Positions 1,888 to 23,023 are shown, counted from the first letter of the stretch. The stretch: DNA of 64,000 nt from an uncultured Thermotogae bacterium (GCA_964614065.1 CAZTJJ010000001.1:9028-73027), one strand, 5' to 3'. The notes: generated by a model from the sequence alone, not told the origin. Numbers and translations are program-made.

Positions 1888-1965
1888 TGTATCACCTAAT
1901 TTTAGACTCTCGTTTGTGAAGTGGATCACACAAAGGATTCAACTATAACCAGGTAGATCAAGGTT

Positions 1966-2229
1966 CCATGCAACCTGCCTCGAAGTCGTTTGCTTGGCGT
2001 TACTTGGCTAGTTCGCTCTGATCAAGCTACCTCCTGACACCCACAGAGGTCCACTTACCGCTGCTCCCTTCCGGGCCTGACGGGGTTTGTAGACTTATGC
2101 CGCAGAAGACTCGACCGTCAACACCACTTTGCCAAGTTCAGTCCCAAACACTCAACCCCTCAGCAGGTATATTGGCTCCCCTATAGCGGATTGAGGATAA
2201 CAGGAACCGCTAGCTCCTGCCTAGCATGG
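1966..2229 (-). ncRNA. ffs: Signal recognition particle RNA, long Bacillus-type form; boundaries approximate.
   Basis: The minus-strand sequence 'GUCAGGCCCGGAAGGGAGCAGCGGUAAG' matches the conserved SRP RNA domain IV helix 8 with its GGAA tetraloop (compare E. coli 4.5S 'GUCAGGUCCGGAAGGAAGCAGCCAAGG'). A terminal CCAUGC/GCAUGG pairing brackets about 264 nt. No ORF is present in this stretch. Confidence 0.55.
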
Positions 2230-2230
2230 T

Positions 2231-2318
2231 TGGCGGAGGGGGTGGGATTTGAACCCACGGAACCTCGCGGTTCACCGGTACTCCAAACCGGCGGTTTTGG
2301 CCGCTCGCCCACCCCTCC
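2231..2318 (-). tRNA. tRNA-Ser with anticodon GGA; class II with a long variable arm.
   Basis: The reverse complement gives GGAGGGG...CCGGU-UUGGAGU-ACCGG...GAACC-GCGA-GGUUC, GUGGG-UUCAAAU-CCCAC, CCCCUCC-G-CCA. The 7-bp acceptor, anticodon loop, variable arm and T arm all fold. I could not pair the D arm cleanly. Confidence 0.75.
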
Positions 2319-2441
2319 TTTCTTTATTGTAATTCTTTTTATCATCAAATAAATCTTAAGTCAGGGAGCGTTCCCTTTCAATTTTTCCCCAACTTTTGCG
2401 TGCTTGCGTTTTTCTTTGATAAACCAGATTCGATAGTTGAA

Positions 2442-4715
2442 TCAAAGTTCTTCTTCATAATCGCAGTTTTTGTTTGTGCAAACTAATTTGTCTCCTGAGT
2501 TAACGAGCACCCCCTGGCCGCACTTCGGACAGCTTTTGACGGGTTTATCACTTGTAGTAAATTTGCAATCGGGGTAGTTGCTGCAACCATAGAAGGTCTG
2601 TTTTTTCTTGCGTGAATACCGCTCGACTAGCTCTCCATCTGCACAATTCGGGCATTTTACACCTGTTGAAATAGAAGCCGTTTCATTACAATCGGGATTG
2701 GTGCACGCGTAAAATCTTCCATATCTCCCATGCTTTATTTCCATTTTCGAGTCACACTTTGGACATCTTTTTTCAGCCATGTTTTGTTCTTCTTGCTGTC
2801 GTTTTTTTAACTCGGCTTCGAGAATGACTTTGCCATCCTTGAACGTAAATGATATGTCTGGAGGCAGGCTCATTTTTTCTTCGCATTCTGGCCATGAAGA
2901 ACAGGACAAGTACGGTGAACCTTTCCAGTATCGGATATTCATGTGTTCCCCGCACTCTGGACAGCTCACGTCCGTGGGAATTTCAAACTCGTCTTCTCTG
3001 GAATCCAGGATTTCCTCTACTTTGTCCAGCTCTTTTTTTAGTGGGGCGTAGAATTTTGTTAAGGTCTTTTCTCTTGACGTTTTCCCATCTTTTATCTGAT
3101 CTAATGCCTCTTCCATTTTTGCAGTTAAACTTGGTTCCACTATTTCCGAAAAGAACTGCTCTAGGAATTCAACCACAACAAATCCCAACAAAGTGGGGAC
3201 AAACGAGCCTTTTCGCTTCACAATGTAGTCCCGCTTTTGGATTGTTGATATGATGCTAGCGTAGGTACTTGGCCTCCCTATGCCCTGTTTTTCCAATTCT
3301 TTAATTAAGCCCGCTTCAGTGTACCTATTTGGGGGCTTGGTGAAGTGTTGGCTAGGATCTATATTATCCAACTTCAAACTGTCGCCCTTCGAGAGATTTT
3401 TTGGCAGTTGGACGTCTTGGTCTTTTAACGGTTTGAGTTTAAGCACTTTTAGAAATCCATCGAAGACTAAACTGCTACCCGAGGTCTTGAACAGGTACTT
3501 ATTTGCCGTGACTTCGATTTTTTTTCGTTTATATCTAGCGTTACTCATCTGAGTTGCTACAAATCTGTCCCAGATTAACTTATAGAGCTTATATTGATCA
3601 TTAGATAAGTGACCTTTGAGATTAGAAGGCTGTCTACACACGCCTGTTGGTCGAATTGCCTCATGCGCATCTTGTGCGCCACTTTTTTTTCGGTAATATC
3701 TGGTTTTGTTGACCAGGTAGTCTGGGCCGAATCGGTCTTTAATGAAGCTCCTTAATTCACTGTTGGCTTCCTTGGCGACCCGAGTGGAATCTGTCCTCAT
3801 GTAGGTAATTAAACCCTCTATTCCTTTGTCCAGCTCCACGCCTTCGTAAAGTGTTTGTGCTATCCTCATTGTCTTCGTGGGGCTGAAATTGAGGATTGAA
3901 GAAGCAGTTCTCTGGAGGGTTGACGTGATGAAGGGCGGTAACGGTGATCGTGTTTTATCCTTTTCCGTGAGTTGTGATAGCTGGAATTTGGCCTGGTCGA
4001 GCTCTGATTTTATTTTATCTGCCTCTTCCCCATTGTTAATTTCAGGTTTCTGTCCACTGATTTTGTGTAGCTTGAGTGGGAATGAAGAGGAAGGCGACTC
4101 TTTGTATAAATCTACTCTTACCTTCCAATATTCCTCTGGTTCAAATTTCTCGCGTTTTTCCTCTCTGTCGACTATGTATTTCAGCCCTACTGATTGCACG
4201 CGGCCGGCGCTTAATCCTTCAAATCGACTTCCGGATATTGATTTCGATAACAAGGGGCTTATCAAATACCCAACTAACCTGTCGAGTATACGGCGGGCTC
4301 GTTGAGCTTCTACTTTTTCTAAGTCGATGTGTGTAGGTTCCTTAATTGCTTGCTTGATACTGTCTTGTGTGATCTCGTTAAAAATAATGCGTTTGAATTT
4401 TGCGTCTCCCTTCGAATTACCATTTGTGTTTAGCAATTCGTAGAGATCAAATGCTATTGCTTCTCCTTCTCTATCGTTATCTGTTGCTAGATATACTGTA
4501 TCTTTTTTGGTGGCTTCTTTTCGTAGTTTACCGATCAATTTCTTTTGGTTGACAACTAAGGTTGGCCTGAATCCGTTTTCTATCTCTACCCCGAGCTCTT
4601 TTTGGGGCAGGTCTCTTATGTGACCCTTTGAGGATAGTACTTTATAGGCAGAACCCAGGTACCTATTTATCGTATTTGCTTTGGTTGGTGATTCTACAAT
4701 AACTAGATTTTCCAT
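2442..4715 (-). CDS. topA: DNA topoisomerase I with C-terminal zinc-ribbon repeats.
   Basis: 757 aa. TOPRIM N-terminus 'VIVESPTKA', a Topo IA core, and several C4 zinc ribbons (CPECG...C, CPKCD...C, CPNC...C). Confidence 0.93.
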   Translation of the reverse strand: MENLVIVESPTKANTINRYLGSAYKVLSSKGHIRDLPQKELGVEIENGFRPTLVVNQKKLIGKLRKEATKKDTVYLATDNDREGEAIAFDLYELLNTNGNSKGDAKFKRIIFNEITQDSIKQAIKEPTHIDLEKVEAQRARRILDRLVGYLISPLLSKSISGSRFEGLSAGRVQSVGLKYIVDREEKREKFEPEEYWKVRVDLYKESPSSSFPLKLHKISGQKPEINNGEEADKIKSELDQAKFQLSQLTEKDKTRSPLPPFITSTLQRTASSILNFSPTKTMRIAQTLYEGVELDKGIEGLITYMRTDSTRVAKEANSELRSFIKDRFGPDYLVNKTRYYRKKSGAQDAHEAIRPTGVCRQPSNLKGHLSNDQYKLYKLIWDRFVATQMSNARYKRKKIEVTANKYLFKTSGSSLVFDGFLKVLKLKPLKDQDVQLPKNLSKGDSLKLDNIDPSQHFTKPPNRYTEAGLIKELEKQGIGRPSTYASIISTIQKRDYIVKRKGSFVPTLLGFVVVEFLEQFFSEIVEPSLTAKMEEALDQIKDGKTSREKTLTKFYAPLKKELDKVEEILDSREDEFEIPTDVSCPECGEHMNIRYWKGSPYLSCSSWPECEEKMSLPPDISFTFKDGKVILEAELKKRQQEEQNMAEKRCPKCDSKMEIKHGRYGRFYACTNPDCNETASISTGVKCPNCADGELVERYSRKKKQTFYGCSNYPDCKFTTSDKPVKSCPKCGQGVLVNSGDKLVCTNKNCDYEEEL

Positions 4716-4928
4716 TATTCCCCCCAGAACGGAGGAAATTATATTTGTATCGCCTCTCTATATCAACAGTAGAAACCTATTATCGATAAGAAGCTCTTTT
4801 TTGGGCCTTTCGAGTCTTCGTGTCTACCCGGTCTTTGAGAGTTAGTTTATCTTACGTTAAGCCTTTGGTTAATTAACTTTATAGACTGCCTAAATTGGGG
4901 TGTTTATAATAAGTTGATGAAATCGTGA

Positions 4929-5555
4929 ATGATAAAAATATTTTCCATACGGGGTGGTATTATGAGGACGATTTTGTCGAAGAGTATAGGTTTGTCACTT
5001 ACATTGATCGTTTTGATTTCGGTAGTTAGTTTTGCTGCTAGTGATCCTCAAGTTAAAATAAGTGAAGTTGCCTGGTCAGGTACTCGAGCTAGCTGGGGGG
5101 ACGAATGGATTGAATTGCATAATACAACTGAAAAGAAGTTGGAGTTGTCGGGTTGGAAAATAGCTTGGGATGATGCGGAAATCTTTCTGGGCTCTGAAAA
5201 GGCAAATACGGTTCAGGTTATTAACAGTTATCTTCCTCCCCAGGGTGTAATTTTACTGGAACGGACTGACGATGAAACGGTTGCCACTGTTGATGCTGAT
5301 ATATTATATACTGGAGGGCTACCAAATTCCGGAACACGGGTTGTGTTAGTGAATCCTGACGGTCAAGAAGTGCAGGTTATATCAGCCTCGGATGGCTGGC
5401 CAGCAGGAACATCATCCGCGGGAGAACCCAGGAATGCATCTATGGAGTTAGTAAACGGTAATTGGAAGACCCATAACGAAGCAGGGGATGAACAGGATAA
5501 AAACGGAGATCCCATATTTGGCTCTCCAGGTAAATTGGTAGATGATTTGTCTTAG
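4929..5555 (+). CDS. Secreted or membrane-anchored protein with a lamin-tail domain (LTD).
   Basis: N-terminal hydrophobic segment; 'ISEVAWSG...DEWIELHN...LSGWKI' is typical of LTD domains. The likely start is ATG at 4962, which follows GGGGTGG. Confidence 0.55.
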   Translation: MIKIFSIRGGIMRTILSKSIGLSLTLIVLISVVSFAASDPQVKISEVAWSGTRASWGDEWIELHNTTEKKLELSGWKIAWDDAEIFLGSEKANTVQVINSYLPPQGVILLERTDDETVATVDADILYTGGLPNSGTRVVLVNPDGQEVQVISASDGWPAGTSSAGEPRNASMELVNGNWKTHNEAGDEQDKNGDPIFGSPGKLVDDLS

Positions 5556-5810
5556 AGGAATTAATCTTCGTAAATCTAGTTGTTTTGATCCAGAAAGAGA
5601 ATTAATGACCCGTGTTTGATTGATAATGAACTGGTCAGAAGATGTAGCTGAACACCGGTAAGTTCAAAAGAAGCTCAATTAAGGAGGCTGGGAAGATCGG
5701 TCTATTGATTATCTAATTAGATTGATCGCAATAATTCAATTCATCCCTTGAACGTGATATCCATTTTTCCGGCGTTCTTGGGATGAATTGTCCCTTCTGG
5801 AAATCTGGGC

Positions 5811-6677
5811 TTAATTTGTCCGGACTTTTAGGTAAGTTCTGAGTTGTTTTTTTATTTTTGGGTTTTTGAGTTTATCGATTGCTTCTTTTTGTATTTGTCT
5901 CACACGTTCTCTGCTGATTCCAAACACTTTGCCTACTTCATTTAGTGTACGTGGATGATAATCTTTCAAGCCATATCGTAGTTGTACAATTCTTCGCTCT
6001 CTATCCGTGAGAACGTCTTGCAGGAGTTGTGTTAAGTGATTCTTTGTCATCATTTCTAGAGATTTTTCCTCTGGATTTGGAAGGTTACTATCGGGGAGAA
6101 TATCACACAATACCCCCGCTTCACCGTTTTCCTCGCTTAACGGTTTGTCCAGGGATGTCGTTCTTTGTGCAGTTTTCTGCGCTTTTCGAATTTTTTCCAC
6201 GGGCACGTCAAGGATATCTGCAACTTCACTTGGGGTGGGTTCTCGACCGTTTTCTTGAATGAAATCTCGTTCTTCTTTTTTGATATCCCTGATTAGCTCA
6301 TTCATATGAGCAGGGACCCGAATAGTTCTTGAACGGTTTGTTATCGCTCTTAATATTGCCTGCCTGATCCACCAAGTTGCATACGTGCTGAATTTGTAAC
6401 CTTTACGCCAATCGAATTTTTCTACTGCCTTCATCAGTCCTAAATTACCTTCCTGAATTAGATCAAGGAACGACAAACCATAATTCCGATATCTTTTGGC
6501 TATGCTGATTACTAGCCTTAAATTGGCAATAGCCAGTTCTTTTTTCGCTTGCGTGTCGTTTTCTTCTATTTTCTGAGCTAATTCAGCTTCTTCTTTTCTG
6601 CTTAATAGAGGCCCGTCGCCGATTTCATCGAAGTAAGCTCTAACTGAGTTCTTCTTGCTATCAACCTGATAAGACAT
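5811..6677 (-). CDS. RNA polymerase sigma factor of the sigma-70 family (a compact RpoD-like form).
   Basis: Region 2 '[37 protein letters not shown]', region 4 HTH '[19 protein letters not shown]'. Confidence 0.85.
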
Positions 6678-7015
6678 ATGACCTCCCTAATAATAGAAAT
6701 TACAAAGGTAGTTTTAGCCTGGAGTTTTACAGAAAAATTTGAGGGTAGAGTACGGTTAATCATGCCGCATGTAAGGACTGTTAACACCTTGGGATTACGT
6801 GCTTGGGACAAAAGCTGGCGTTCACCACATAATGAAGAAGGGACCATAAAAGCATTATAATGGGAAATGTCCATATTTCAAAGTAAATTCAGTGGGCCTA
6901 GCCAACTTAACTCAAAACGAAGTAGTTATACTTTAAGTTTATTCCACCCTAGTTTGAGTGATTCTTACAGGTTTGTTGAAAAATTTAGGTTAGCCGTATG
7001 TTCAATTTGAGAATT

Positions 7016-7106
7016 GAGTGCTGGAACAATTCCCCTTCTTCAAATTCAGCCTTCTATTCCAATGTTTTTCTACAAGCCCATCCCTTGGGACGGGGTAATT
7101 GACTAA
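7016..7106. repeat. Copy A of a ~90-bp intergenic repeat: GAGTGCTGGA...CTTCAAATTCAGCCTTCTATTCCAATGTTTTTCTACAAGCCC-hairpin-GGGGTAATTGACT.
   Basis: About 85-90% identical to the stretch at 23746-23837. It sits between the patatin 3' end and the sigma-factor upstream region. Confidence 0.8.
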
Positions 7107-7114
7107 AAATTTTG

Positions 7115-8047
7115 TTAAGTATTCCCAATAGACTGGAACAGTTTTCTGACGTCTTCGAAATGTTTTTCCATGCATTCTTCGCCAAGGGTAGACGCCTCCT
7201 TGACTTTATTAAAATCCAACCAGTTTAACTTAGCGACTTTCGGTTTGATTACTTCTAGTTTTCCCTCTAGTTTCTCTGTAGCTATGGTGTTTTTCGTGTT
7301 GAGCAGTTCTTTTTTTCTAATCTTGTTGGTTCTGTTGAATGTGTCTAAAGGGTTGTTTTTAGGGTCCTTGGATAAGTTGGTGCCTACATCTACAGCCAGT
7401 ACCGATTCTGCACCGAATTGTATTGCTGGCAAGATCGGTACTGGGTCAACGACCCCGCCGTCAACTAGTAAATGATTTTTCCATTTTACCGGGGGGATAA
7501 AGCCAGGAATGGCAGAGCTGGCTGCTGCTGCCCGATAAACTTTTCCTTCATTGATTATTACTTCTTTACCTGTTACAAGGTCAGTAGCAATAGCAGCGTA
7601 ATCTATAGGGAGGTCTTTGACCCAGGAATCCTTTGTTAGTAGTTTAAAGAACGTAAAAAATCGGGCCAGTTTGACTGGGGTCCTACCTGACTCACTGGCG
7701 GTCCAACGGTTTACCCCAATTCCCTGAGCTAGAGTTTTGCCGATTATCTTTTCCAATTCTCTTCGACTTTCCCTTGATATTTGTAGTATCTGATTGATAT
7801 CTAGCCTTTCTAGGATTTTTATCAAGTCGTCTGTATTGACCTTTCCCGCTGCGGCGGCCCCGATTACAGCTCCCATGCTTGTACCCACTATCAAGTCAGG
7901 AGTTAAGTCTGCGTGTTGTAACGCTTTTATGACACCCAGGTGGGCAAATCCCCGCGCGCCACCACCACCGAGGACCAGTGCGACTCCGGACTTGTGATTG
8001 TTGTTCTTGTCCTTGGCATTACTTTCTAATGTAAGTTTGTTAATCAT
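7115..8047 (-). CDS. Patatin-like phospholipase.
   Basis: 'GGGARGFAHLGV' oxyanion hole and the 'GTSMGA' nucleophile elbow; DGG motif is present. Confidence 0.85.
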   Translation of the reverse strand: MINKLTLESNAKDKNNNHKSGVALVLGGGGARGFAHLGVIKALQHADLTPDLIVGTSMGAVIGAAAAGKVNTDDLIKILERLDINQILQISRESRRELEKIIGKTLAQGIGVNRWTASESGRTPVKLARFFTFFKLLTKDSWVKDLPIDYAAIATDLVTGKEVIINEGKVYRAAAASSAIPGFIPPVKWKNHLLVDGGVVDPVPILPAIQFGAESVLAVDVGTNLSKDPKNNPLDTFNRTNKIRKKELLNTKNTIATEKLEGKLEVIKPKVAKLNWLDFNKVKEASTLGEECMEKHFEDVRKLFQSIGNT

Positions 8048-8204: not shown

Positions 8205-9872
<1,668 letters not shown>

Positions 9873-9884
9873 CTAAGTTAAATG

Positions 9885-10160
9885 TTATTCAATCTTTGCA
9901 AGAATGTTATTGTCCTTAACTATTTTTAACTCCCGATCGTTCATCTCGATTTCCGTACCGGAGAAGCTAGATAGGATAACTTGATCTCCGACTTCAACCT
10001 CTATCTTTTCGTCTGTTCCAGTTGCGAGGACTTCTGCCTTCACGTAGTTATCCTCTTCCTTGGCACTTTCCGGCAGAACAATCCCACCTTCTGTAACTTC
10101 CTCTTCTTCGATTTCAACTTTCTCCACCAATACTCTACGACCTAATGGTTTTATATCCAT
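9885..10160 (-). CDS. groES: Co-chaperonin GroES.
   Basis: 91 aa, 'IKPLGRRVLVE...GGIVLPESAKE'. Confidence 0.95.
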   Translation of the reverse strand: MDIKPLGRRVLVEKVEIEEEEVTEGGIVLPESAKEEDNYVKAEVLATGTDEKIEVEVGDQVILSSFSGTEIEMNDRELKIVKDNNILAKIE

Positions 10161-10284: not shown

Positions 10285-10386
10285 CCCCTCCCCGGCGGTT
10301 TTTTAACTATTGGGTGCGAGTAGGAGTGGGTATTTAATTTATCTTGTGAATGTGATATCATTCTTTGTAGGATAGGAGGTATAACC

Positions 10387-11250
10387 TTGGACAGACAAAC
10401 AGAAACGTATTCTGTAATTTGGTTACAGGGTGCAGCTTGCACGGGTTGTGCAATTTCTCTCATGAATTCGAGTTACCCTAAACTATCCAATTTGCTTATA
10501 GACGAAGTGGTTCCTGGAAAATCAATTGAACTGAAATTTATGGCGACTCTAATGGGCGCAACTGGCGAGCTTGCACTAGAAGTGTTGAGCCGCACCGAGG
10601 CGGAAGAAGACTATATGCTGGTTGTCGAAGGTGCAGTTCCAACAGGCGCCGATGGCAAATACTGTACAGTGGGTGAAGAACCTATAGCAGACCAAGTGAT
10701 CAGGTTGGCGCCTAAGGCCACGGCGGTTGTCAACGTTGGGACTTGTGCTGCATATGGGGGGATTCCTTCTGGAGCCCCTAATCCGACAGAAGCCGTCGCA
10801 GTTTCTGAACATCTGAATAATCAGGGTATTGATACGCCTTATCTAAATGTTCCCGGTTGTCCCCCTGAACCTAGTTGGTTTGTGGACACGCTGGCGTCGG
10901 TGATGTTGTTTGGACTTCCTGAAGCTGATCAAGTTGACGATATTGGTCGATTGACGGCGGTTTACGGTGAATTAATACACGATAATTGTCCGCGCAGGGG
11001 CGATTTTGCTAATGGCCATTTTGCTCGTCACGTAGGGGAAGAAGGATGTTTGGTAGAAATTGGCTGTAAGGGTCCGTATGCCAATGCTCCGTGTCCCAAC
11101 AGAGGTTGGCACGATGGGTTAAACTGGGCGATAAAAAACAATCATCCCTGTATTGGTTGCGTTGAACCGGGTTTTCCAGACTTAATGAGCCCGTTCTTTG
11201 AGAAGTTTGGCCCTGAAGAGTCGGAGGAGATGTACAGGAGGCTAAAGTGA
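10387..11250 (+). CDS. [NiFe] hydrogenase small subunit. It has no Tat signal and shows a group 1/2-like three-cluster architecture.
   Basis: TTG start with a GGAGGT RBS. Proximal cluster 'CTGC', C-terminal 'HDNCPRRG...GCKGP...CIGCVEPGFPD'. No RRxFxK twin-arginine motif. Confidence 0.85.
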   Translation: MDRQTETYSVIWLQGAACTGCAISLMNSSYPKLSNLLIDEVVPGKSIELKFMATLMGATGELALEVLSRTEAEEDYMLVVEGAVPTGADGKYCTVGEEPIADQVIRLAPKATAVVNVGTCAAYGGIPSGAPNPTEAVAVSEHLNNQGIDTPYLNVPGCPPEPSWFVDTLASVMLFGLPEADQVDDIGRLTAVYGELIHDNCPRRGDFANGHFARHVGEEGCLVEIGCKGPYANAPCPNRGWHDGLNWAIKNNHPCIGCVEPGFPDLMSPFFEKFGPEESEEMYRRLK

Positions 11251-12761
11251 AACAGATTACAATAGATCCGGTGACCAGGATTGAAGGTCACCTTAAAATC
11301 GATACTGAGGTCGAAGGAAACGTAGTAAGGGCTGCTAGGAGTAGTGGTACGCTCTTCAGGGGATTTGAGCAGATTCTAGCTGGCCGGGATCCACGAGATG
11401 CTCAGCGTATTACTCAGAGAGTCTGTGGAGTTTGTCCTACAGCTCATGCTACTGCCTCTTCTCTAGCCTTGGAAGATGCTTTCGGAATTAGGGATCAAGT
11501 ACCAAAAAACGGTCGAATTATCAAGAATATAATGTTGGGTGCGAACTTTATTCAGTCGCACGTCCTTCACTTTTACCACCTTGCCTCATTGGATTACTTG
11601 AACCCGGAAATTTTGAAGGATTATACGGGCGATGCACCGGGGATCGATGCTCTGGTCAACTATCTAACAACCACCGATGGCTCTCCTTTTTCACCGCAAT
11701 ATGAGGGTGACTACAGGCTTGGCCCCGAGATCAGCGCTGACTTGTGCCAGGATTACCTGGACGGTCTTGAGATTAGAAAGAAGGCCCACGAGCTTTTGGC
11801 TCTTTTTGGTGCGAAGATGCCTCATAATATGGGTACAGTACCTGGGGGATCCACCCGAAAGCCCGACCTGGATCTGATAGAAAAGTGCCAGTCTCGTTTA
11901 AAGGAGATCCGGTCCTTCATTGATAATCAATACCTTCCAGGGGCGATTGCCTTGGTGGAAGCGTATGACGATTACTTTGAGATAGGTCAAGGTGTGGATA
12001 CGTTTTTGGAATACGGCGGGTTTTACTTCGATAACGTGTCGGCAAGACCTCAGGACACCCCTGTTGGACTACTTGGTGGGATCTTCCAGCTTGGAAATTC
12101 GGGAGTAGATGAAGTGGATCTGGAGGAGATTACTGAAGAGGTAACTCACTCTTGGTATAGTGACGAAACTGCTGGTCATCCGTCAATTGCAAAGACTAAT
12201 CCCAGTGCGGACAAAGAAGGTGCATATTCCTGGGTAAAAGCCCCAAGATACAGAGGGCTTCCCTGTGAAGTCGGCCCTGCAGCTAGAGTACTTATTAACT
12301 ACACAAGAGGGAATGATTACATAAAGACAAGAATGGATGAAATAATGAATAAGTTGAATATAGATCTTGAGAATTGTGCGTCGGTTGCTGGGCGACATCT
12401 TACTCGTGCACTCGAGTGTAAATATATAAGCGATCTCATGGCAGAGTGGTCTTCTCAGTTAGACCCGGGTGAACCGTCATGCGCCAGATATGAGATGCCA
12501 GATGAAGGTTCCGGAGTTGGCGTGACCAGCGCGCCCAGAGGAACTTTGGGGCACTGGATAGAGGTAAAAGGTGGAAAGATAGCTAACTATCAGTTGGTTG
12601 TTCCGACAACCTGGAACGCTTCACCCAAGGATAGTAAAGGTAGACCGGGACCAATAGAGGAAGCATTGATTGGTACAAAGGTCGAGGATCAAGACAACCC
12701 AATTGAAGCAGCTCGGATAGTTCGCTCGTTTGATCCCTGTATGGCCTGCGCGGTTCATTGA
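11247..12761 (+). CDS. [NiFe] hydrogenase large subunit. It ends exactly at the His of the C-terminal DPCxxCxxH motif, so there is no cleavable extension.
   Basis: GTG start overlapping the small-subunit stop (GTGA). N-terminal 'RIEGHLKI' and 'RVCGVCPTAH'; C-terminal 'DPCMACAVH*'. Confidence 0.9.
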   Translation: MKQITIDPVTRIEGHLKIDTEVEGNVVRAARSSGTLFRGFEQILAGRDPRDAQRITQRVCGVCPTAHATASSLALEDAFGIRDQVPKNGRIIKNIMLGANFIQSHVLHFYHLASLDYLNPEILKDYTGDAPGIDALVNYLTTTDGSPFSPQYEGDYRLGPEISADLCQDYLDGLEIRKKAHELLALFGAKMPHNMGTVPGGSTRKPDLDLIEKCQSRLKEIRSFIDNQYLPGAIALVEAYDDYFEIGQGVDTFLEYGGFYFDNVSARPQDTPVGLLGGIFQLGNSGVDEVDLEEITEEVTHSWYSDETAGHPSIAKTNPSADKEGAYSWVKAPRYRGLPCEVGPAARVLINYTRGNDYIKTRMDEIMNKLNIDLENCASVAGRHLTRALECKYISDLMAEWSSQLDPGEPSCARYEMPDEGSGVGVTSAPRGTLGHWIEVKGGKIANYQLVVPTTWNASPKDSKGRPGPIEEALIGTKVEDQDNPIEAARIVRSFDPCMACAVH

Positions 12762-12786
12762 TATTTGCGGATAGGAGGTATATAAA

Positions 12787-13467
12787 ATGATTCTATCTGA
12801 ACCGAAGTCATGGGAGGAAATACAAGGATATCTGGAGAACGATAATAGTGTCTTTGTCCTAGGGTGTGGTGGCTGTGATGCTGCTACTGGAGACGGAGGG
12901 GCAGAACGTGTAACCGATCTATCTAAAAAACTGACCGAGGAAGGGTGGAAGGTGTCGGGAACTAGGGTGGTCGAATTTCTCTGTAATAAAGCACTTGCAG
13001 GAATGAAGCTTGCCCGCGTTTCCGAGCAGATTGAACAAAGCGATTCTTTACTTGTCTCCTGTTGCGGTATTGGTGTACAGGCAGTTAGCAAGCTGGTTGA
13101 TAAGCAGGTCCACCCGGCAAACGATACTATATCCATGGGAGATTTCCATGGAACCTGGCCCTCTGAAGAAACCTGTAAAAGATGCGGAGAATGCCTATTG
13201 GAGTATACTGGGGGAATTTGTCCACTTACTATGTGTATTAAAGGTCTTCTCAACGGTGCTTGTGGAGGTTCATATCAAGGGAAATGTGAGGTGGAACCTG
13301 GACGCCCCTGCGGATGGGAATTAATTTATCAGAGGCTAAAGGATATCGGTCGCTTGGATTTGCTCGAACAGTACAATCCCCCTAAAACTAGAAAAAAATA
13401 TGAGTTCGGAGTTCCCGTTGAAGAACGGAGTTCACTTTACTGGGCGATTGAAGCTGAGGAGGAATAA
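12787..13467 (+). CDS. metV: MetV-like Cys-rich protein (methylene-THF reductase C-terminal-domain family, predicted FeS).
   Basis: 226 aa with 'GCGGCD', 'SCCGIG' and 'CKRCGECLLEYTGGICPLTMCIKGLLNGACGG'. Sits immediately upstream of metF and overlaps it, as in acetogen metVF. Confidence 0.65.
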   Translation: MILSEPKSWEEIQGYLENDNSVFVLGCGGCDAATGDGGAERVTDLSKKLTEEGWKVSGTRVVEFLCNKALAGMKLARVSEQIEQSDSLLVSCCGIGVQAVSKLVDKQVHPANDTISMGDFHGTWPSEETCKRCGECLLEYTGGICPLTMCIKGLLNGACGGSYQGKCEVEPGRPCGWELIYQRLKDIGRLDLLEQYNPPKTRKKYEFGVPVEERSSLYWAIEAEEE

Positions 13468-14342
13468 TGAGCATTCTACAACAAAAACTAGAAGCTGGGG
13501 AGTTTGCAATTACCTGTGAAGCTGGTCCTCCTAAAGGGGTAGATGTCGAGGGAGAACTTCACGAGGTGGAAGAAATATCGGATTTAATAGATGCTTTTAA
13601 TGTAACTGATTTGCAATCTTCTGCGATGCGGATGAGTTCAGTGGCTATGTGTCGGCTTCTCGAAGAAAGAGACCTCGAAACTGTTTATCAAATGACATGT
13701 AGAGATAGGAATAGGCTGGGACTCCAATCGTCCTTGTTAGGGGCTTGGGTTCTTGGAATGAGGAATGTTCTAGCGTTGACCGGTGATTACACGACTTTGG
13801 GAGATCATCCTCAGGCGAAGCCGGTGTTTGATCTTGATTCAATCCAGCTTCTGGAAACCATTCAGACCCTAAATAGTGGGGAAGATTTAGTTGGAAACGA
13901 ACTCCAGGGGTCTCCTCAGTTTTTCGCTGGGGCGGCGGCAAATCCGGGAGCAGACCCACTCGAGCCACAGATAATTAAAAGTAGAATGAAAGCTCAGTAT
14001 GGCGCGAAGTTCTTTCAAACCCAGGCTGTTTACGACCCTGAGATTTTTGCTAACTTTATCGAAGAGTTGAGGTCGGCAGGCGTGGATACACCTGTAATGG
14101 TGGGCATTTTGCCCCTGAAATCCGCGGGAATGGCGCGATTTATGGATAGTAACATCGCTGGAGTAGTAATACCCGATAGTGTAATAAAAGAACTTTCAGA
14201 TGCTTCTGACACCGTCCGTAAGAGCTTAGAGATCTGTGCTCGTGTGATAAATGACACTGCGGATTTATGTGAGGGAGTTCACCTTATGCCAATGGGTTGG
14301 GAAAGATACGTACCGGATATTCTGAGTCAAACCAATCTATAG
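13467..14342 (+). CDS. metF: 5,10-methylenetetrahydrofolate reductase MetF.
   Basis: 291 aa, 'AITCEAGPPKG...QMTCRDRNRLGLQS...ALTGDY'. ATG overlaps the metV stop (TAATGA). Confidence 0.85.
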   Translation: MSILQQKLEAGEFAITCEAGPPKGVDVEGELHEVEEISDLIDAFNVTDLQSSAMRMSSVAMCRLLEERDLETVYQMTCRDRNRLGLQSSLLGAWVLGMRNVLALTGDYTTLGDHPQAKPVFDLDSIQLLETIQTLNSGEDLVGNELQGSPQFFAGAAANPGADPLEPQIIKSRMKAQYGAKFFQTQAVYDPEIFANFIEELRSAGVDTPVMVGILPLKSAGMARFMDSNIAGVVIPDSVIKELSDASDTVRKSLEICARVINDTADLCEGVHLMPMGWERYVPDILSQTNL

Positions 14343-14407: not shown

Positions 14408-14445
14408 CAATTAGCTGGGTTCTGCTTGGCTAATTGTCGTTTTTA
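14408..14445 (+). terminator. Putative bidirectional terminator after metF, overlapping the 3' end of the convergent histidine kinase gene.
   Basis: 8-bp stem CAATTAGC/GCTAATTG, 13-nt loop, then TCGTTTTTA. Confidence 0.4.
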
Positions 14446-15782
14446 TCATTGAAATCATCGATTCTGGGAAGAACGATCGTAAACACTGATCCCGCACCTT
14501 CTTTGCTTTTCATGGATATTTCTCCGTTGTGGGCTTCGATGATCTGCTTCGCGATTGACAGTCCAAGACCAGTTCCGCCGGTATGTCTAGACCTCGATTT
14601 GTCTACTCTATAGAAGCGATCAAATATGTGTGGTTGATCGCTGTTTGGTATTCCAACACCGGTGTCGACTACGTGAATAATTGCTTGATCTTTTTCCGAA
14701 CGGACGTGGATGGTGACTCTGCCGCCTTCATGGGTGTGAGTTAAGGCATTATCTAGCAGATTACGTATCACCTGGGTTAGGCGTTCGGGGTCAGCTTCTA
14801 CAAGGGTTGAGTCAGGTAGGCGGGTGTTTAGGATTATTTTTTGATCCCTTGCTTTGTTTTCAATAGATTTGACGGCATTTGAGACTATATCTTCTAGGAC
14901 GATTGGTTTTTTCTCCAGTTTCAGCTTGCCCGCCTTCGCCTTGTTTACAGCTCTTAGGTCATTGATTAACCTGTTAAGGACCAATGATTGTCGATGGAGT
15001 GACTCAAAGACTTCGTCGTCTGGTTTGATCAAACCTTCTTTTAAACCCTCTAGATAGCCTTGAATATTGGAAAGAGGGTTGCGGAGCTCGTGAGCTACAT
15101 CACTAACCATTTCCTCACGCAGTTGTTTTTGCTTTTTAAGCCTGGCTCCTAGAGCGTTGAATGCTTTACCAAGAGTGCCGATTTCATCGTTGGTAGAAAT
15201 ATCAACCCGCTGGCCTAAGTTACCTTCCTGCATTTTTCTTGTTGCTGTGGTCAAGTTACGTACTGGTTTCACGATGTTCCTCGAAAAGAATGTGGCAAGA
15301 AGTATTCCTGCCAAGCCTGCGATTACGGCTGCTGTTATAACGGATTTGTTGACTGAGTCAAGAAATGCTTTTTGTAAAGTTGAACGTTCTTGCGTTTTTA
15401 TGTAGATCTTTCCAATCGGGTACTCTCCGAGTCTAAGGGTTATGCTTTTACTGGACCAGTCGTCTTCGAGCTCTTTGTTTTCCAGCTTTGCAGCAGTATC
15501 ACTTATTACCTTTCCGTCTGGATCTGTAAGCACGAACCTCTCGCTATACATTTCTGCGACCTTTTCGGTGAGGTTGGAAACTTCATTCCACCCCCCCGCA
15601 TAACGATAATAATTTGTAAAGGTTAGTGCCAAGCGCTGATATTGTTCAGCCTGATCTCTGCTCACGTATCGGTCAAATTGATTGGTGGCTGAAATGGTGG
15701 CAATGTAAGCAATAGTTCCCACCGCGATCGCCACAACTAAGAAAAAACTTGCCAGTAATTTAATCCGCAGGCTAGTGAACAT
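14430..15782 (-). CDS. Sensor histidine kinase (TM, HAMP, HisKA, HATPase_c).
   Basis: 450 aa; H-box 'SDVAHELRNPL', N/G boxes 'DNALTHT...VVDTGVGI...GGTGLGLSI'. Confidence 0.9.
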   Translation of the reverse strand: MFTSLRIKLLASFFLVVAIAVGTIAYIATISATNQFDRYVSRDQAEQYQRLALTFTNYYRYAGGWNEVSNLTEKVAEMYSERFVLTDPDGKVISDTAAKLENKELEDDWSSKSITLRLGEYPIGKIYIKTQERSTLQKAFLDSVNKSVITAAVIAGLAGILLATFFSRNIVKPVRNLTTATRKMQEGNLGQRVDISTNDEIGTLGKAFNALGARLKKQKQLREEMVSDVAHELRNPLSNIQGYLEGLKEGLIKPDDEVFESLHRQSLVLNRLINDLRAVNKAKAGKLKLEKKPIVLEDIVSNAVKSIENKARDQKIILNTRLPDSTLVEADPERLTQVIRNLLDNALTHTHEGGRVTIHVRSEKDQAIIHVVDTGVGIPNSDQPHIFDRFYRVDKSRSRHTGGTGLGLSIAKQIIEAHNGEISMKSKEGAGSVFTIVLPRIDDFNDKNDN

Positions 15783-16485
15783 GGGTGTTATTTGAGTCGT
15801 TGTCGTTTAGTGGAGGATCGAATTTATAGCCAATTCCGTGGACAGTTGTGATATAAGTGGGGTTTTTGTGATCTGGTTCAATTTTTTTTCTAATGTTTTT
15901 TATATGTACGTCGATTGTTCGTTCGAAACCTTCGTATCCATATCCGAGGGCGGCGTGAATTAGGTCGGGGCGGGAAAAGACCCTACGAGGTTGGTTTGCT
16001 AGTGTAGAGAGGATCTTGAACTCAGTTGGGGTTAAATCTACTGGTTCATCTTCAAGAAAGACTTTGTGTGTTTCGTAATTAACTGTTAAATTACCGATAG
16101 TGATCTCCGTTTGGTTTTTCTCTTCAGTGCGCCTAAGTGCTGCTCTTATCCTTGCTAGTAGCTCACCGGGACTAAATGGTTTAGTAACGTAATCGTCTGC
16201 TCCCAGATCAAGACCTTTTATCCTATCTTCCTCATCTGACTTGGCGGTGAGCATTATTATAGGTACCTGTGACTCACTGCGTATTGATCGACATACGTTT
16301 AGGCCCTTGACTTTTGGTAACATGAGGTCGAGAACAATCAGGTCTACCTCTCGGAGCCGATAAAGATTAAGAGCAGCTTTCCCGTCGTAGGCAGTTAAAA
16401 CGTGATAGCCATCCTTTTCAAGATACTTTTTCAGTAACTCTACCAAACTTTCATCGTCGTCTACAACGAGAATAGTTTTATTCAT
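15772..16485 (-). CDS. OmpR-family response regulator (receiver plus winged helix).
   Basis: 'ILVVDDDESL...DLMLP', C-terminal 'TPTEFKIL...RVFSR' winged helix. The ORF runs to ATG at 16536, but those 17 extra residues are hydrophobic, so ATG at 16485 (MNKTILVVDDD) is preferred. Overlaps the kinase gene by 11 nt. Confidence 0.85.
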   Translation of the reverse strand: MNKTILVVDDDESLVELLKKYLEKDGYHVLTAYDGKAALNLYRLREVDLIVLDLMLPKVKGLNVCRSIRSESQVPIIMLTAKSDEEDRIKGLDLGADDYVTKPFSPGELLARIRAALRRTEEKNQTEITIGNLTVNYETHKVFLEDEPVDLTPTEFKILSTLANQPRRVFSRPDLIHAALGYGYEGFERTIDVHIKNIRKKIEPDHKNPTYITTVHGIGYKFDPPLNDNDSNNTHVH

Positions 16486-16541
16486 TAAGTTAAGGAGAAC
16501 AGGGACCGAGAATATCAGGCCCCTGTTCTTTAACATTAAGG

Positions 16542-18002
16542 TTATGGTTGGAGCACTAACCAGCGGTAAGTATTTCCTCTGAGTACCCTGATCAGCAGTG
16601 TTTCTCGTTTGCTGAGAGAGGAAGTTACGTTTTGCCAGTCACTTATATCCGTCAGTGGTTTGAGACTTACGCTATTTCTTCCAGCCTGCACTATCACGTC
16701 GCCTTCTTCAAGTTCTCTTGCAGGGCCAAATTTGTCAACGTCTTTTACCACAAGCCCTTTATTCGTTACTAAGTCGTATTTCTCCTTAGTCTCTATGGAG
16801 TTCTGGATCAAAGTAATACCGTATTTCTCATCAGTTAGCTCGTCTTTGTTGGGGGAGTCTACTTGTGTAGTTTCCTTTCTTTCACCAAGTTTCACCGTAG
16901 CTGTGTGCTCTTTTCCATCTCTAAGGAAAGTTAAAGTGATTTCTTCTCCTACTGATCGGTACATTATTTCTTGTTGAAACTGTGTATCGCTAGTTATAGT
17001 TTTCCCGTTTACTTCTGTGATTACGTCCCCTGCCTCAAGACCTGCTTTATCTGCTGGGTCGCCTTCCATTACTTCAGAGATTAGTACTCCTACTCCGGGT
17101 TCCACTTCAAATTTTTGCGCCATTGAAGGATTCAGTTCCTGAAAGACCACTCCTAGCCAGGCGCGAGTAACTTGACCTGTGCTTACTAACTCTCCAAGGA
17201 CCTGTTTGACTGAGTCTATAGATACTGCAAAATTCAATCCCGTTAGCGGTACCCCTTGCTGGCTTCTGCGGATAATAGCCGTATTGATGCCGATAACTTC
17301 TCCACTGGTGTTTACCAAAGGTCCGCCGGAGTTTCCAGGGTTGATTGCTGCATCTGTTTGTAGAAGGTCTTGGTAGCTTCCTTCGCCGCTAGGCTTGGGT
17401 ATTGTCCTATTTTTAGCACTTAGAACTCCGGCTGTGACAGTGTTCTCGAATCCTTCGGGATTGCCTATCGCGACTACCCAAGCACCAACTGGAGTATTCT
17501 CCGGATTTCCTAGTTCTATCGAGGGCAAATTTTGTGGGTTCTCTCCTTTTGTAATTTCAAGTACTGCAACATCGATCATTTCGTCCTTACCTATTACCTC
17601 TGCTTGATATGTTGTGCTGTCGCTAAACGTCAGCCTTATGTCCTCCGCTCCGGTGACGACGTGCTCATTGGTGAGTAAGTATTTCTTACCTTGCCAGGTA
17701 ATTATGAAACCCGATCCCAACGATTGTACTCTTTGTTCTTCTTGCCTGTCTGGGTTGCCAAAGAAGTATCTGAAGAACGGATCGTCAAAAAAGTTATAAG
17801 GGGACCGTTGTGCTACAGTCTTTGTCACTTCGACCCTTGCAACAGCTGGACCGGCTATTTCCGCTGCTCTGGTGATGGCAGTTTTCTGAGAACTTGCAAT
17901 GTTATTGGCATCAGCGGCTAATGCGGCCAAGCTGGTTGGCAATAAAAGTCCTAAAGTTAGCACTACCAGAAGTACAAAATGCAAACTCCGATTTTTGTTC
18001 AT
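16542..18002 (-). CDS. htrA: HtrA/DegP-family periplasmic serine protease with PDZ domains.
   Basis: Signal peptide; trypsin-like 'GNSGGPLVN'; two PDZ-like regions. Directly upstream of the RR-HK pair, as in a CssRS/CpxAR-htrA arrangement. Confidence 0.9.
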   Translation of the reverse strand: MNKNRSLHFVLLVVLTLGLLLPTSLAALAADANNIASSQKTAITRAAEIAGPAVARVEVTKTVAQRSPYNFFDDPFFRYFFGNPDRQEEQRVQSLGSGFIITWQGKKYLLTNEHVVTGAEDIRLTFSDSTTYQAEVIGKDEMIDVAVLEITKGENPQNLPSIELGNPENTPVGAWVVAIGNPEGFENTVTAGVLSAKNRTIPKPSGEGSYQDLLQTDAAINPGNSGGPLVNTSGEVIGINTAIIRRSQQGVPLTGLNFAVSIDSVKQVLGELVSTGQVTRAWLGVVFQELNPSMAQKFEVEPGVGVLISEVMEGDPADKAGLEAGDVITEVNGKTITSDTQFQQEIMYRSVGEEITLTFLRDGKEHTATVKLGERKETTQVDSPNKDELTDEKYGITLIQNSIETKEKYDLVTNKGLVVKDVDKFGPARELEEGDVIVQAGRNSVSLKPLTDISDWQNVTSSLSKRETLLIRVLRGNTYRWLVLQP

Positions 18003-20991: not shown

Positions 20992-21723
20992 TTAGATCTT
21001 GAGGTTTATTTTCTTAATGGAGTTTCCGAAATTTCTGGTTCCGCCGCCTTGAGAGACTATTTCCATGACTTCTTTTGGGTTCATGACAATTGACCCAAAT
21101 AGATAGGAGATACCATGTTCTTGCAGGGTAGGAACAAATGGTGTTGACGGTCCAAGTAAAGCGGTCTTGCCCGACGCTAGACGTAATATATGATCGATTG
21201 TTTCATTAATTATAGTCGTGGAAGAGATTATCAATATATCGCAGGATGGAAGAAGAGAATTTATTGCCCAATCCGGGTAGGTTGTTTCATCTGATGAGGA
21301 CTCTCTTTCGAATATATAGAGTTCACTTGATCTCTCCCGAATAGGTTCGATCAGAGGTTCGAAATAACCCACCATACCGACCTTGTGGGTGGAGTTGATT
21401 CCTAGGGCTTCTAACGGTGACGCTATGTTGCTTTGAGTTCCTTGATTTGCTACCGCGTTTATGGTAGCAAGACCTATTCCAGCTTGCAGGGGATCGGGTT
21501 TGGTTAGAAGTTGGGCGGCTTTGTAGGCGTTTATTCCGATGTATTGACCTGCAGCTTCTAGCAGGCTACAGCCCCTGGGTAGATCATATCTTAACGTAGC
21601 GGCCAATCCGGTATTACCGGAGTCAAGTTGTATCGCAGTATAGCCTAAGCCGATTCTTAGATCGGATACTGACTGTCTTTGGAGTTCGGCTTTGTATTGG
21701 TTTACGAGTTGTTCCTTAATCAT
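20992..21723 (-). CDS. DUF4213/DUF364 protein (Rossmann-like 'putative heavy-metal chelation' family).
   Basis: 243 aa; family recognised from sequence. Overlaps the upstream feoC-like gene by 4 nt. Confidence 0.5.
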   Translation of the reverse strand: MIKEQLVNQYKAELQRQSVSDLRIGLGYTAIQLDSGNTGLAATLRYDLPRGCSLLEAAGQYIGINAYKAAQLLTKPDPLQAGIGLATINAVANQGTQSNIASPLEALGINSTHKVGMVGYFEPLIEPIRERSSELYIFERESSSDETTYPDWAINSLLPSCDILIISSTTIINETIDHILRLASGKTALLGPSTPFVPTLQEHGISYLFGSIVMNPKEVMEIVSQGGGTRNFGNSIKKINLKI

Positions 21724-21986
21724 GATTTGTAGGTTTCCTCATCCGTTTGTCTGTCTTCGGTTACCATGTAAAGTTTTTCCTGCCCGGGGGAAGGTAAAGG
21801 GCAAAAACTACTCATTGGGCAACTGTTGCATTTACGGTGTTTATCAAGTTCTTTCAGCTTTCCACGAGAGACAAGAGTTTCGATAATGGCCTGAATAGTT
21901 TGTTTCCTCATGTCGAGGATTGTTACAAGTTCGTCCACCGATTTTCCTCGCCCTATTTTGGTGATCAATTCGTCTTCTAGACTCAT
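21720..21986 (-). CDS. FeoC-like small winged-helix protein with a Cys cluster.
   Basis: 88 aa, HTH-like N-terminus, 'CNSCPMSSFC'; sits after the feoB fragment. Confidence 0.45.
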   Translation of the reverse strand: MSLEDELITKIGRGKSVDELVTILDMRKQTIQAIIETLVSRGKLKELDKHRKCNSCPMSSFCPLPSPGQEKLYMVTEDRQTDEETYKS

Positions 21987-22045
21987 GGGATTGTAAGCTC
22001 CGAAAATTTTGAGTCGGATTTATCTCTTCAGTGACAAATACTGCA

Positions 22046-22570
22046 TTAAAGATTTTCTATCCTTTTTTTTAACTCTTTGGTATCGGTTGGTGTTGCCTGT
22101 GTAACCTTATGGGCTAGCTCTGATATTCCTTTCCCGCTAATGGCAACGGTTGATACAACTGGCACCTGAAGAATTTCTTCTAACTTCTCTACATCAATTT
22201 TTATGTTGTGGCTCTCAGCGTCGTCCCACATATTCAGAGCAATTACCAAAGGGAATCCTTTCTCCATGATCTCGAATGCTAGATATAACCCTCGTTCGAT
22301 CTTTGTAGCATCCAGGATAGAAATGACGGTTGCGTCCGGATTGTTTGCTAGTAGATCTAAAGCAACCTGCTCGGCTTCGTCTTTTGGTTCTGTGGAAAAG
22401 GTCCCCGGTACGTCTATAATCTCGTACTCTTGGTCTTCAATAAAGGTATATCCTACGGTATAATCTACGGTCGTTCCCGGGTAGTTGGATTCAGTGATAT
22501 TTGCTCCTGTTAATCTGTTGAAGACGGCACTCTTTCCCACGTTTGGATGCCCCATTAGTAAAATTTTCAT
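22046..22570 (-). CDS. Stand-alone FeoB G-domain: a small GTPase with no GDI or membrane permease domain.
   Basis: 174 aa, 'ILLMGHPNVGKSAVFNRLTG' G1, 'TTVD' G2, 'DVPG' G3, 'NMWD' G4. Overlaps feoA by 4 nt. Confidence 0.8.
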   Translation of the reverse strand: MKILLMGHPNVGKSAVFNRLTGANITESNYPGTTVDYTVGYTFIEDQEYEIIDVPGTFSTEPKDEAEQVALDLLANNPDATVISILDATKIERGLYLAFEIMEKGFPLVIALNMWDDAESHNIKIDVEKLEEILQVPVVSTVAISGKGISELAHKVTQATPTDTKELKKRIENL

Positions 22571-22794
22571 TTTTTAACCTCTATGAAAATTTGTTGCGCC
22601 AGTCCAAAACCAAGCGAAGTTGTAGATTGATCTACCGTAATTACTACAGGCCCCTTTATGGGCTGTTTTGTATCCATTCGGATTAACTTTCCATCTCTTA
22701 TCCCCATACCACAAAGCTTGGGTTTGATATTTTCTCCCATACTATGGATGATACCCCGTTCACCATATTCTAATTCTGTCAGTTTTTTTAACAT
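22567..22794 (-). CDS. feoA: FeoA-family protein (SH3-like).
   Basis: 75 aa, typical FeoA size and 'G..G.I' pattern. Confidence 0.7.
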   Translation of the reverse strand: MLKKLTELEYGERGIIHSMGENIKPKLCGMGIRDGKLIRMDTKQPIKGPVVITVDQSTTSLGFGLAQQIFIEVKK

Positions 22795-23018: not shown

Positions 23019-23023
23019 AGTGG

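Follow-up and report, generated by a model that had tools for sequence, protein, structure and literature searches.

Four co-directional genes on the plus strand of a 64,000-nucleotide stretch of DNA from an uncultured Thermotogae bacterium (GCA_964614065.1 CAZTJJ010000001.1:9028-73027; the whole stretch is referred to below as the window) encode the small (SSU) and large (LSU) subunits of a [NiFe] hydrogenase, followed by MetV and MetF, the subunits of a methylene-tetrahydrofolate (methylene-THF) reductase (MTHFR). The physiological electron donor of MetFV-type MTHFRs is a long-standing question in acetogen bioenergetics, and it matters because most of the free energy of the methyl branch is associated with the methylene-THF step. 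The claim of the initial annotation that no such arrangement had been described stands only in part. A single sentence published in 2024 states that, in Bipolaricaulia from Great Salt Lake, MetVF is adjoined by a group 1a HysAB hydrogenase, which may supply electrons for MTHF reduction (PMC11287216). No description beyond that sentence, and no biochemical or comparative study, was found in the literature searched.

The SSU gene (10387–11250, 287 residues; PF01058, 4e-25; PF14720, 1e-30) starts with TTG and is preceded, 7 nt upstream, by the Shine–Dalgarno sequence GGAGG (10375–10379). The LSU gene (11247–12761, GTG start, 504 residues; PF00374, 1e-145) follows at a junction, ...AAGTGAAAC, that reads as a GTGA overlap; its product scores 627 bits against the NCBIfam model NF033181, for which the cutoff is 600 bits, with NF045520 and NF045518 as the next-best models. 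A 25-nt spacer (12762–12786), which includes AGGAGG at 12773–12778, separates the LSU gene from metV (12787–13467, 226 residues; PF12225, 3e-31), encoding the Fe-S electron-transfer subunit of a MetFV-type MTHFR. In turn, metV overlaps metF (13467–14342, 291 residues; PF02219, 5e-39; MTHFR domain model NF006396, 241 bits), the gene of the flavin-binding TIM-barrel catalytic subunit, by one nucleotide at the junction TAATG, with GAGGAGG just before it. A Shine–Dalgarno sequence is present ahead of each of the four genes, and both the open reading frames (ORFs) and the junctions bear out the translational coupling that was initially annotated, with its GTGA overlap, 25-nt gap, and metV/metF overlap.

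The unit is closed on both sides by genes of the minus strand, groES (9885–10160) at its 5′ boundary and a histidine kinase gene (14430–15782) at its 3′ boundary, so that no further same-strand subunit belongs to it. The sole other ORF between the hydrogenase and metVF (12621–13253, minus strand) overlaps metV and is unsupported. Family matches of the ORFs of the operon include no Hdr, MvhD, RnfC, or NAD(P)H-binding subunit, as had been stated for the interval between the hydrogenase and MetVF, and no hdrA/B/C, mvhD, or RnfC-like gene is present among the annotated ORFs of the window. A promoter and terminator scan gave signals no better than in shuffled sequence, and an Rfam search returned no match in the region.

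Cofactor sites and location of the four proteins

The SSU retains every ligand of a three-cluster subunit. The ligands of the proximal [4Fe-4S] cluster are Cys18, Cys21, Cys120, and Cys158, those of the distal one, of the His type, are His198, Cys201, Cys221, and Cys227, and those of the medial cluster are Cys236, Cys255, and Cys258. Position 248, where an optional fourth ligand of the medial cluster can be located, is occupied by Ala, as compared with Cys in 34 of 52 relatives, so that this organism probably has a medial [3Fe-4S] cluster. As a separate observation, the SSU of a Desulfotignum metagenome-assembled genome (MAG; L043:5025-5999) has SDSGC in place of the first CxGC, with Asp instead of a Cys ligand, and the proximal cluster of that protein may be altered.

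The start codon of the SSU gene at 10387 is the first one downstream of an in-frame stop. Just 17 residues precede the first CxGC, and the N terminus, which was compared with those of 80 relatives, has no RRxF motif. Residue 8 of the protein aligns with residue 8 of the mature, signal-cleaved SSU of Desulfomicrobium baculatum (1CC1_S). The position of the start codon and this alignment together confirm that the twin-arginine translocation (Tat) signal is missing, as first annotated, which places the hydrogenase in the cytoplasm. The SSU also has no C-terminal membrane anchor; its maximum 19-residue hydropathy of 1.28 indicates that there is no transmembrane helix, and hydropathy profiles reveal none in any of the four proteins.

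The L1 and L2 Ni-Fe binding motifs of the LSU, RVCGVCPTAH and DPCMACAVH, are intact, and the active site contains Cys rather than Sec, with a DPCMAC motif and no in-frame TGA of the [NiFeSe] type. In the C-terminal alignment, the chain stops directly after the active-site His504, without the C-terminal extension. With the last active-site His at the end of the chain, no endopeptidase maturation step is needed, and no gene for a HycI-like maturation protease is present in the window cluster. The extension is likewise absent from the LSUs of L001–L005, L010, L032, L044, L054, L059, L067, L072, L091, and L092. None of the 13 MetV-linked loci with an extension-less LSU has a hycI gene in the cluster, and L091 and L092 similarly combine a 504-residue LSU with no hycI gene. 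In relatives with a 15-residue LSU extension, hycI is usually located between the LSU gene and metV. The protease-independent form is found in Bipolaricaulota, as well as in some Chloroflexota and Actinomycetota MAGs.

The best matches of both subunits in the PDB are group 1a enzymes of the Hys type (5JSU, 4KL8, and 1CC1; LSU, ~1e-122; SSU, 4e-65), those of the LSU being NiFeSe large subunits. The Hys hydrogenase of Desulfovibrio and Desulfomicrobium (1CC1, 5JSH) is the closest sequence relative of both, with which the window enzyme shares a three-cluster SSU and a His-ligated distal cluster. It differs from Hys in being Tat-less, in carrying Cys instead of Sec, in the medial cluster being probably 3Fe rather than 4Fe, in the lack of the extension, and in having MetVF in place of a cytochrome c3 partner; no gene for cytochrome c3 or for a membrane redox partner is found in the operon or its flanks. 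Judged by sequence, the window hydrogenase is group 1a-like, yet it fails four features that define the group. The group 1/2 architecture assigned initially can be sharpened to a group 1a-like sequence without the periplasmic features of that group.

MetV has 12 conserved Cys residues, four of them (Cys27, Cys30, Cys66, and Cys93) in an N-terminal α/β domain and eight in the C-terminal DUF5981 domain, and its NGACGG motif comprises residues 156–161. The AlphaFold2 model of MetV has a mean pLDDT (predicted local distance difference test) of 78, with the N-terminal α/β domain confidently modelled. MetV has no sequence relative in the PDB, and a Foldseek search of the PDB with the model yielded no significant match, the best hit (E = 7e-3) being to generic α/β folds. 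The 12 Cys residues are candidate ligands of the [4Fe-4S] clusters on MetV that, together with FMN on MetF, characterize MetFV-type enzymes. The sequence features of the MetFV type are present, namely a PF02219 MetF and a PF12225 MetV with the conserved Cys residues, the NGxCGG motif, and metV located upstream of metF and overlapping it, and the pair appears to encode a bona fide MetFV-type MTHFR core.

Linkage of the hydrogenase to MetV and MetF in other genomes

The window LSU has a 100% match in JGI data, and several named Candidatus Bipolaricaulota MAGs are among the next-best matches (60–81% identity). Proteins named as belonging to Dehalococcoidia, Anaerolineae, and Latescibacteria occur in a large set of matches at ~54% identity. 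The closest relative examined, L001 (GCA_046538225.1), has its entire neighborhood in common with the window, and the order SSU-LSU-MetV-MetF is kept in three different flanking contexts in Bipolaricaulota relatives with LSU identities of 61–80%. The same order is also found in three relatives at ~54% LSU identity. Two of these, the Dehalococcoidia MAG L007 and L008, have a called gene for the HycI protease between LSU and MetV, and the third, the Latescibacteria-named L009, has an uncalled gap of 0.5 kb at that place.

A scan of one genome per GTDB species yielded more than 595 LSU relatives, of which the best 80 loci were tabulated. A Tat-less SSU with MetV/MetF nearby is present in 63 of these, whereas 13 have a Tat signal (RRxF leader) on the SSU and no MetV/MetF nearby. 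In two more loci, the SSU is 5′-truncated by the contig end and MetV/MetF are nearby, and in the last two the SSU is not visible, again owing to a contig end, and MetV/MetF are not found nearby. The Tat-less status and metVF adjacency therefore partition perfectly in all 76 evaluable loci among the best 80, with no exception in either direction. The Tat-bearing relatives have mostly the reversed order, LSU before SSU, and otherwise different neighbors. The hydrogenase is thus not separated from metVF in the related genomes, be they Bipolaricaulota or the 63 loci mentioned above. The labels given by the submitters to the metVF-linked loci span at least 12 phyla, mostly of uncultured organisms, and include Chloroflexota, Planctomycetota, Spirochaetota, Actinomycetota, Poribacteria, Aerophobetes, Fraserbacteria, Omnitrophota, Nitrospira, Desulfobacterota, and others.

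This partition bears directly on whether the enzyme might be an ordinary periplasmic respiratory uptake hydrogenase of group 1a, adjacent to metVF only incidentally. Its best structural relatives are indeed the periplasmic Hys enzymes, and HydDB-type classification places close relatives in group 1a (PMC11287216). However, it has neither a Tat signal nor an anchor, and no cytochrome or membrane partner gene accompanies it, while the relatives that do bear a Tat signal differ in gene order or neighbors. A periplasmic enzyme is hardly credible under these circumstances, and incidental adjacency was rejected on account of the missing signal peptide and the perfect Tat/metVF partition.

The linkage is equally evident when approached from MetV. 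Three relatives picked in a MetV search, blind to their context, were all hydrogenase-linked (3/3). A metagenome scan, in which loci were ranked by MetV similarity, gave 66 evaluable loci, each with at least 1.5 kb of upstream DNA. The LSU gene lies directly upstream of metV in 58 of them and 3.9 kb upstream in one, and the seven with no hydrogenase in view contain the lowest-ranked MetVs, with identities of 45% or less. Where a genome has two copies of metV, the one linked to the hydrogenase always belongs to one clade, into which the window MetV also falls, whereas the other copy, often located beside hdrA-mvhD, is found elsewhere. Pairwise distances of the SSU correlate with those of MetV with r = 0.82, as compared with r = 0.74 for MetV and MetF. 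The linkage of the hydrogenase with metVF is not local chance. The literature searched contained no description of the phylogenetic breadth of the module, of its strict coupling with the loss of the Tat signal, of the dedicated MetV clade, or of the protease-independent variant.

Two variations in the content of the cluster can be added. A tandem duplicated metV is located between the hydrogenase and metF in L025:8059-9523 and L091:7001-8373. A DUF3786 protein is encoded after metF in at least eight loci, comprising a six-locus cluster that includes L025 and L044, as well as L091 and L092.

A hydrogenase that is Tat-less and has an LSU without the C-terminal extension displays two hallmarks of regulatory hydrogenases, which raises the question of an H2 sensor of the HupUV/HoxBC kind, signalling to C1 genes through the adjacent kinase and response regulator. 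A kinase and a regulator do lie immediately downstream (14430–16536), and such genes recur inside the cluster in Chloroflexota relatives. Nevertheless, the families and structures matched best are those of group 1a and not of group 2b, and the SSU, with 287 residues, ends 15 residues past the last conserved motif, without a C-terminal kinase-docking extension. The CGVC motif of the LSU carries the small Val of catalytic enzymes in place of the bulky residue of sensors. The window kinase is BaeS/CpxA-like, with HAMP, HisKA, and HATPase domains, and is encoded on the opposite strand together with an OmpR-type regulator and HtrA, unlike the soluble HoxJ/HupT kinases that are paired with an NtrC-type regulator. 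The genes of the kinase, the OmpR-type regulator, and the DegP-HtrA protease (14430–18002, minus strand, convergent with metF) make up a module of the envelope-stress type that is also present in L001 and absent from L003, L005, and L090; the invariant partner is MetVF, not the kinase. The hydrogenase, with its best matches to group 1a Hys-type enzymes, does not group with the sensory HupUV/HoxBC proteins. A sensory function is thus very improbable, and it was rejected because of the group 1a-like sequence, the absence of a docking tail, and the lack of conservation of the kinase with the module.

A candidate H2:methylene-THF oxidoreductase and its known counterparts

The gene content, the cofactor ligands, the lack of signals for export or anchoring, and the conservation of the linkage are all read directly from the sequences, and from them we infer complex formation, an electron path, an activity, and its direction. 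Comparative genomics lends this interpretation good support. We consider it likely that the four genes encode a single soluble redox module of the cytoplasm, where THF chemistry takes place, in which MetV and MetF would be the dedicated partner of a group 1a-like hydrogenase and the whole would act as an H2:methylene-THF oxidoreductase. In such an enzyme, H2 would be split at the Ni-Fe site, and electrons would pass singly from the proximal to the medial and then to the His-ligated distal cluster of the SSU, and from there to the Fe-S clusters of MetV. MetV would reduce the flavin of MetF, which would give a hydride to 5,10-methylene-THF, yielding 5-methyl-THF. Steps involving NAD(P)H, ferredoxin, Hdr, or a quinone would not be needed. 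The Bipolaricaulota version would be a streamlined one, with the LSU made without the C-terminal extension and with no maturation protease gene in the cluster.

In the published scheme of MTHFRs from 2021, the E. coli, 2S, 3S, and 6S types and the NuoEFG-linked X type are distinguished (PMC8515935), and the subunit context of the window matches none of them. The likeness is greatest in the core of the 2S type, represented by MetFV of Clostridium ljungdahlii, C. formicoaceticum, and Eubacterium callanderi (PMC8515935). [quoted passage not shown] The C. ljungdahlii enzyme contains flavin mononucleotide and Fe-S clusters and uses a low-potential one-electron donor, not NAD(P)H (PMC8515935). What distinguishes the window, together with the whole of its MetV clade, is the co-inherited [NiFe] hydrogenase ahead of metVF (at a distance of 25 nt in the window), on which account the donor would be H2 via a bound hydrogenase and not free ferredoxin. 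Since 2S MetFV takes its electrons from diffusible carriers rather than from NAD(P)H, a docked hydrogenase in place of the carrier would be a small step.

The same properties of the 2S enzyme permit a looser arrangement, in which the genes are co-transcribed but their products stay apart instead of assembling into a complex. The hydrogenase would then reduce a diffusible carrier encoded elsewhere (ferredoxin, flavodoxin, or thioredoxin), and a 2S-type MetVF would oxidize it, as in C. ljungdahlii. Purified 2S MetFV does accept electrons from reduced ferredoxin, flavodoxin, and thioredoxin (PMC8515935). The window MetV has its Cys set in common with other MetVs, and operon linkage by itself would look the same for a stable complex and for dedicated diffusible coupling. 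On the other hand, comparison of the 63 species-representative and 58 metagenome loci shows no gene for a carrier as a conserved part of the module, and the hydrogenase-linked MetVs form a distinct clade that tracks the SSU, which suggests a specific partner. Moreover, the transfer of electrons from H2 to ferredoxin is uphill at low H2 for a hydrogenase that does not bifurcate. We regard coupling through a free carrier as unlikely and retain the dedicated hydrogenase–MetVF module as the preferred interpretation.

The 3S type (RnfC2-MetFV) has an RnfC-like NADH-binding subunit, which is not found beside metVF in the window. The 6S enzyme HdrABC-MvhD-MetFV of Moorella thermoacetica (Mock et al. 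2014, as reported in PMC8515935 and PMC5736913) likewise combines a MetFV core with an Fe-S/flavin input module in one operon. Its input is NADH via HdrA, whereas the window has no hdr or mvhD and its input module is a hydrogenase; some Anaerolineae relatives have both. The use of H2 as the donor for methylene-THF reduction, proposed here, has been shown in Sporomusa ovata (PMC9430772). In that organism, however, a periplasmic, Tat-exported, cytochrome-b-anchored hydrogenase, a quinone, and a 6S MTHFR conserve energy via scalar protons, whereas the window module is soluble, with no membrane component.

In the methanogen MvhAGD-HdrABC complex, a cytoplasmic [NiFe] hydrogenase also docks on a reductase through Fe-S subunits, as is proposed for the window. 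That hydrogenase belongs to group 3c, MvhD and the flavin of HdrA serve in bifurcation, and the acceptor is a heterodisulfide. A parallel at the opposite end of the methyl branch is the hydrogen-dependent carbon dioxide reductase of Acetobacterium woodii, reportedly described by Schuchmann and Müller in 2013 as a reversible enzyme in which a hydrogenase is wired via small Fe-S subunits directly to an enzyme of the Wood-Ljungdahl pathway with no soluble cofactor. It differs in combining an [FeFe] hydrogenase with formate dehydrogenase, and in catalyzing the first step of the methyl branch instead of the last one.

If the proposed module is real, it would represent a further type of MTHFR and a new class of cytoplasmic partner for group-1-like [NiFe] hydrogenases. 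For bacteria of the subsurface and sediments, models of the Wood-Ljungdahl pathway would then change in their H2 thresholds, ATP yields, and degree of reversibility, and surveys that take each group 1a match as periplasmic respiratory H2 uptake would over-count that function. The LSU of the Bipolaricaulota form, with no extension and no need of a protease, may in that case lend itself to expression better than most [NiFe] hydrogenases do.

Pathway context, direction of the reaction, and flanking genes

The module is often embedded in fhs-folD or acs operons, among genes of the Wood-Ljungdahl pathway. In 12 loci, fhs-folD immediately precedes it in the same orientation. The co-directional order acsB-acsC-acsE-SSU-LSU-metV-metF-DUF3786 is present in L092 (a Chloroflexota MAG) and L091 (a metagenome contig), and genes for CODH, AcsE, AcsD, and RACo adjoin the module in L003, a Bipolaricaulota relative.

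With textbook E0′ values of -414 mV for H2 and -200 mV for methylene-THF, the reaction in which H2 reduces methylene-THF, giving methyl-THF, is exergonic by ~41 kJ/mol under standard conditions. As written, H2-driven reduction of methylene-THF conserves no energy. At ~1 nM H2 (E ~ -240 mV) and with a high ratio of methyl- to methylene-THF, the reaction is estimated to near equilibrium.

Several considerations weigh against a simple H2-driven reductase. With such a non-conserving MTHFR, an acetogen wastes the pathway's most exergonic step and, according to our own balance for a scheme of the A. woodii type, would have no surplus ferredoxin for Rnf. Because of this waste, the module may physiologically serve assimilation, run in reverse, or depend on partners whose genes lie elsewhere; with regard to hyp genes, ferredoxins, and other MTHFRs, the analysis covered 64 kb of this genome. 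The linkage counts are not phylogenetically independent, and the backbone of a neighbor-joining tree of 87 LSU sequences is unresolved, with the Tat-bearing sequences in two or three places, for which reason we make no claim of monophyly or ancestry for the MetVF-linked enzymes. Finally, the clusters of some relatives contain either genes for methylamine (MttB-family) methyltransferases (L008 and L090) or hdrA-mvhD (L012, L018, L020, and L079), so that the wiring is not uniform.

The first of these variants may concern the direction of the reaction. In the Bipolaricaulota relative L090 (1-10331), the co-directional order is MttB-MttB-pterin methyltransferase-corrinoid protein-RACo-SSU-LSU-MetV-MetF-Fhs, and in L008 (11630-14365) URO-D and MttB genes are located downstream of MetF. 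These arrangements hint that the module is used there for methyl-group oxidation, in the H2-evolving direction. No step in the proposed chain is obviously irreversible, so that at the sub-nanomolar H2 of sediments it could run in reverse, oxidizing methyl-THF with release of H2. Such H2-evolving methyl oxidation is conceivable near equilibrium and fits the methyltransferase-linked loci. We can tentatively speculate, without holding it to be the probable case, that the enzyme is a reversible one that operates near equilibrium at sub-nanomolar sediment H2, and by means of which Bipolaricaulota, Dehalococcoidia, Planctomycetota, and others oxidize methyl-THF, whether its methyl group comes from acetate, from methylamines, or from methoxy compounds, directly to H2, needing neither Hdr nor a quinone loop nor reverse electron transport. 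If so, it would address the long-recognized thermodynamic bottleneck of the reversed Wood-Ljungdahl pathway, and many calls of "group 1a respiratory uptake hydrogenase" in metagenome surveys would mark cytoplasmic C1 metabolism.

The second variant bears on whether the module forms the core part of an electron-bifurcating enzyme of larger size, comparable to MvhAGD-HdrABC and with further subunits encoded elsewhere in the genome, in which exergonic methylene-THF reduction would push electrons from H2 onto ferredoxin. Bifurcation would remove the waste of energy that a simple H2-driven MTHFR entails. In L012, L018, and L020 (Anaerolineae/Chloroflexota; positions 34-7560), a 1300-residue fusion of GltD-like and HdrA-like parts, MvhD, and a copy of MetV are encoded immediately upstream of SSU-LSU, and in L079 (12-4190) the hydrogenase genes are preceded, at a distance of ~0.9 kb, by a separate set of hdrA-mvhD-metV-metF. 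Related Acetothermia have metVF beside hdrA and mvhD (PMC9586279). The sequences thus suggest that in some lineages the hydrogenase is joined with an MTHFR of the Hdr type, which may bifurcate. By contrast, no hdr, mvhD, or extra flavoprotein is found in the operon of the window or of the other Bipolaricaulota loci examined, where the sole flavin is that of the MetF substrate site, and MetFV of C. ljungdahlii showed no bifurcation with ferredoxin (PMC8515935). For the window module, bifurcation is a distinctly improbable alternative to the direct H2:methylene-THF oxidoreductase.

A further feature of the clusters concerns signalling proteins. Soluble histidine kinases in which a cyclic-nucleotide-binding domain (PF00027) at the N terminus is combined with HisKA and HATPase_c are encoded in or right after the cluster, on the same strand, in L012, L014, L016, L018, L020, L022, and L079. 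These belong to Chloroflexota, Anaerolineae, and Fraserbacteria MAGs, and the kinases are accompanied by one or two single-domain CheY-like regulators (for example, L018:7628-9511 and 10486-11317). A "phoBR" pair flanking metF has been noted in a marine Chloroflexi single-cell genome (PMC5736913).

The remaining annotated ORFs of the window are of a housekeeping nature (chaperones, iron uptake, a peptide transporter, and translation). Two sizeable ORFs, 28801–29949 (minus strand, 382 residues) and 53835–54785 (plus strand, 316 residues), have no Pfam match at E <= 1e-5. The heat-shock genes are arranged in two groups, groES-groEL (8205–10160, minus strand), which is divergent from the hydrogenase operon, and hrcA-grpE-dnaK-dnaJ (23933–28708, plus strand), located ~14 kb downstream. 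A metal-handling cluster (20992–23497, minus strand) encodes a putative metal-chelation protein (DUF364/DUF4213), a stand-alone FeoB N-terminal GTPase domain of 174 residues, and an iron-dependent repressor of the DtxR type, and could have a bearing on the supply of Fe or Ni.

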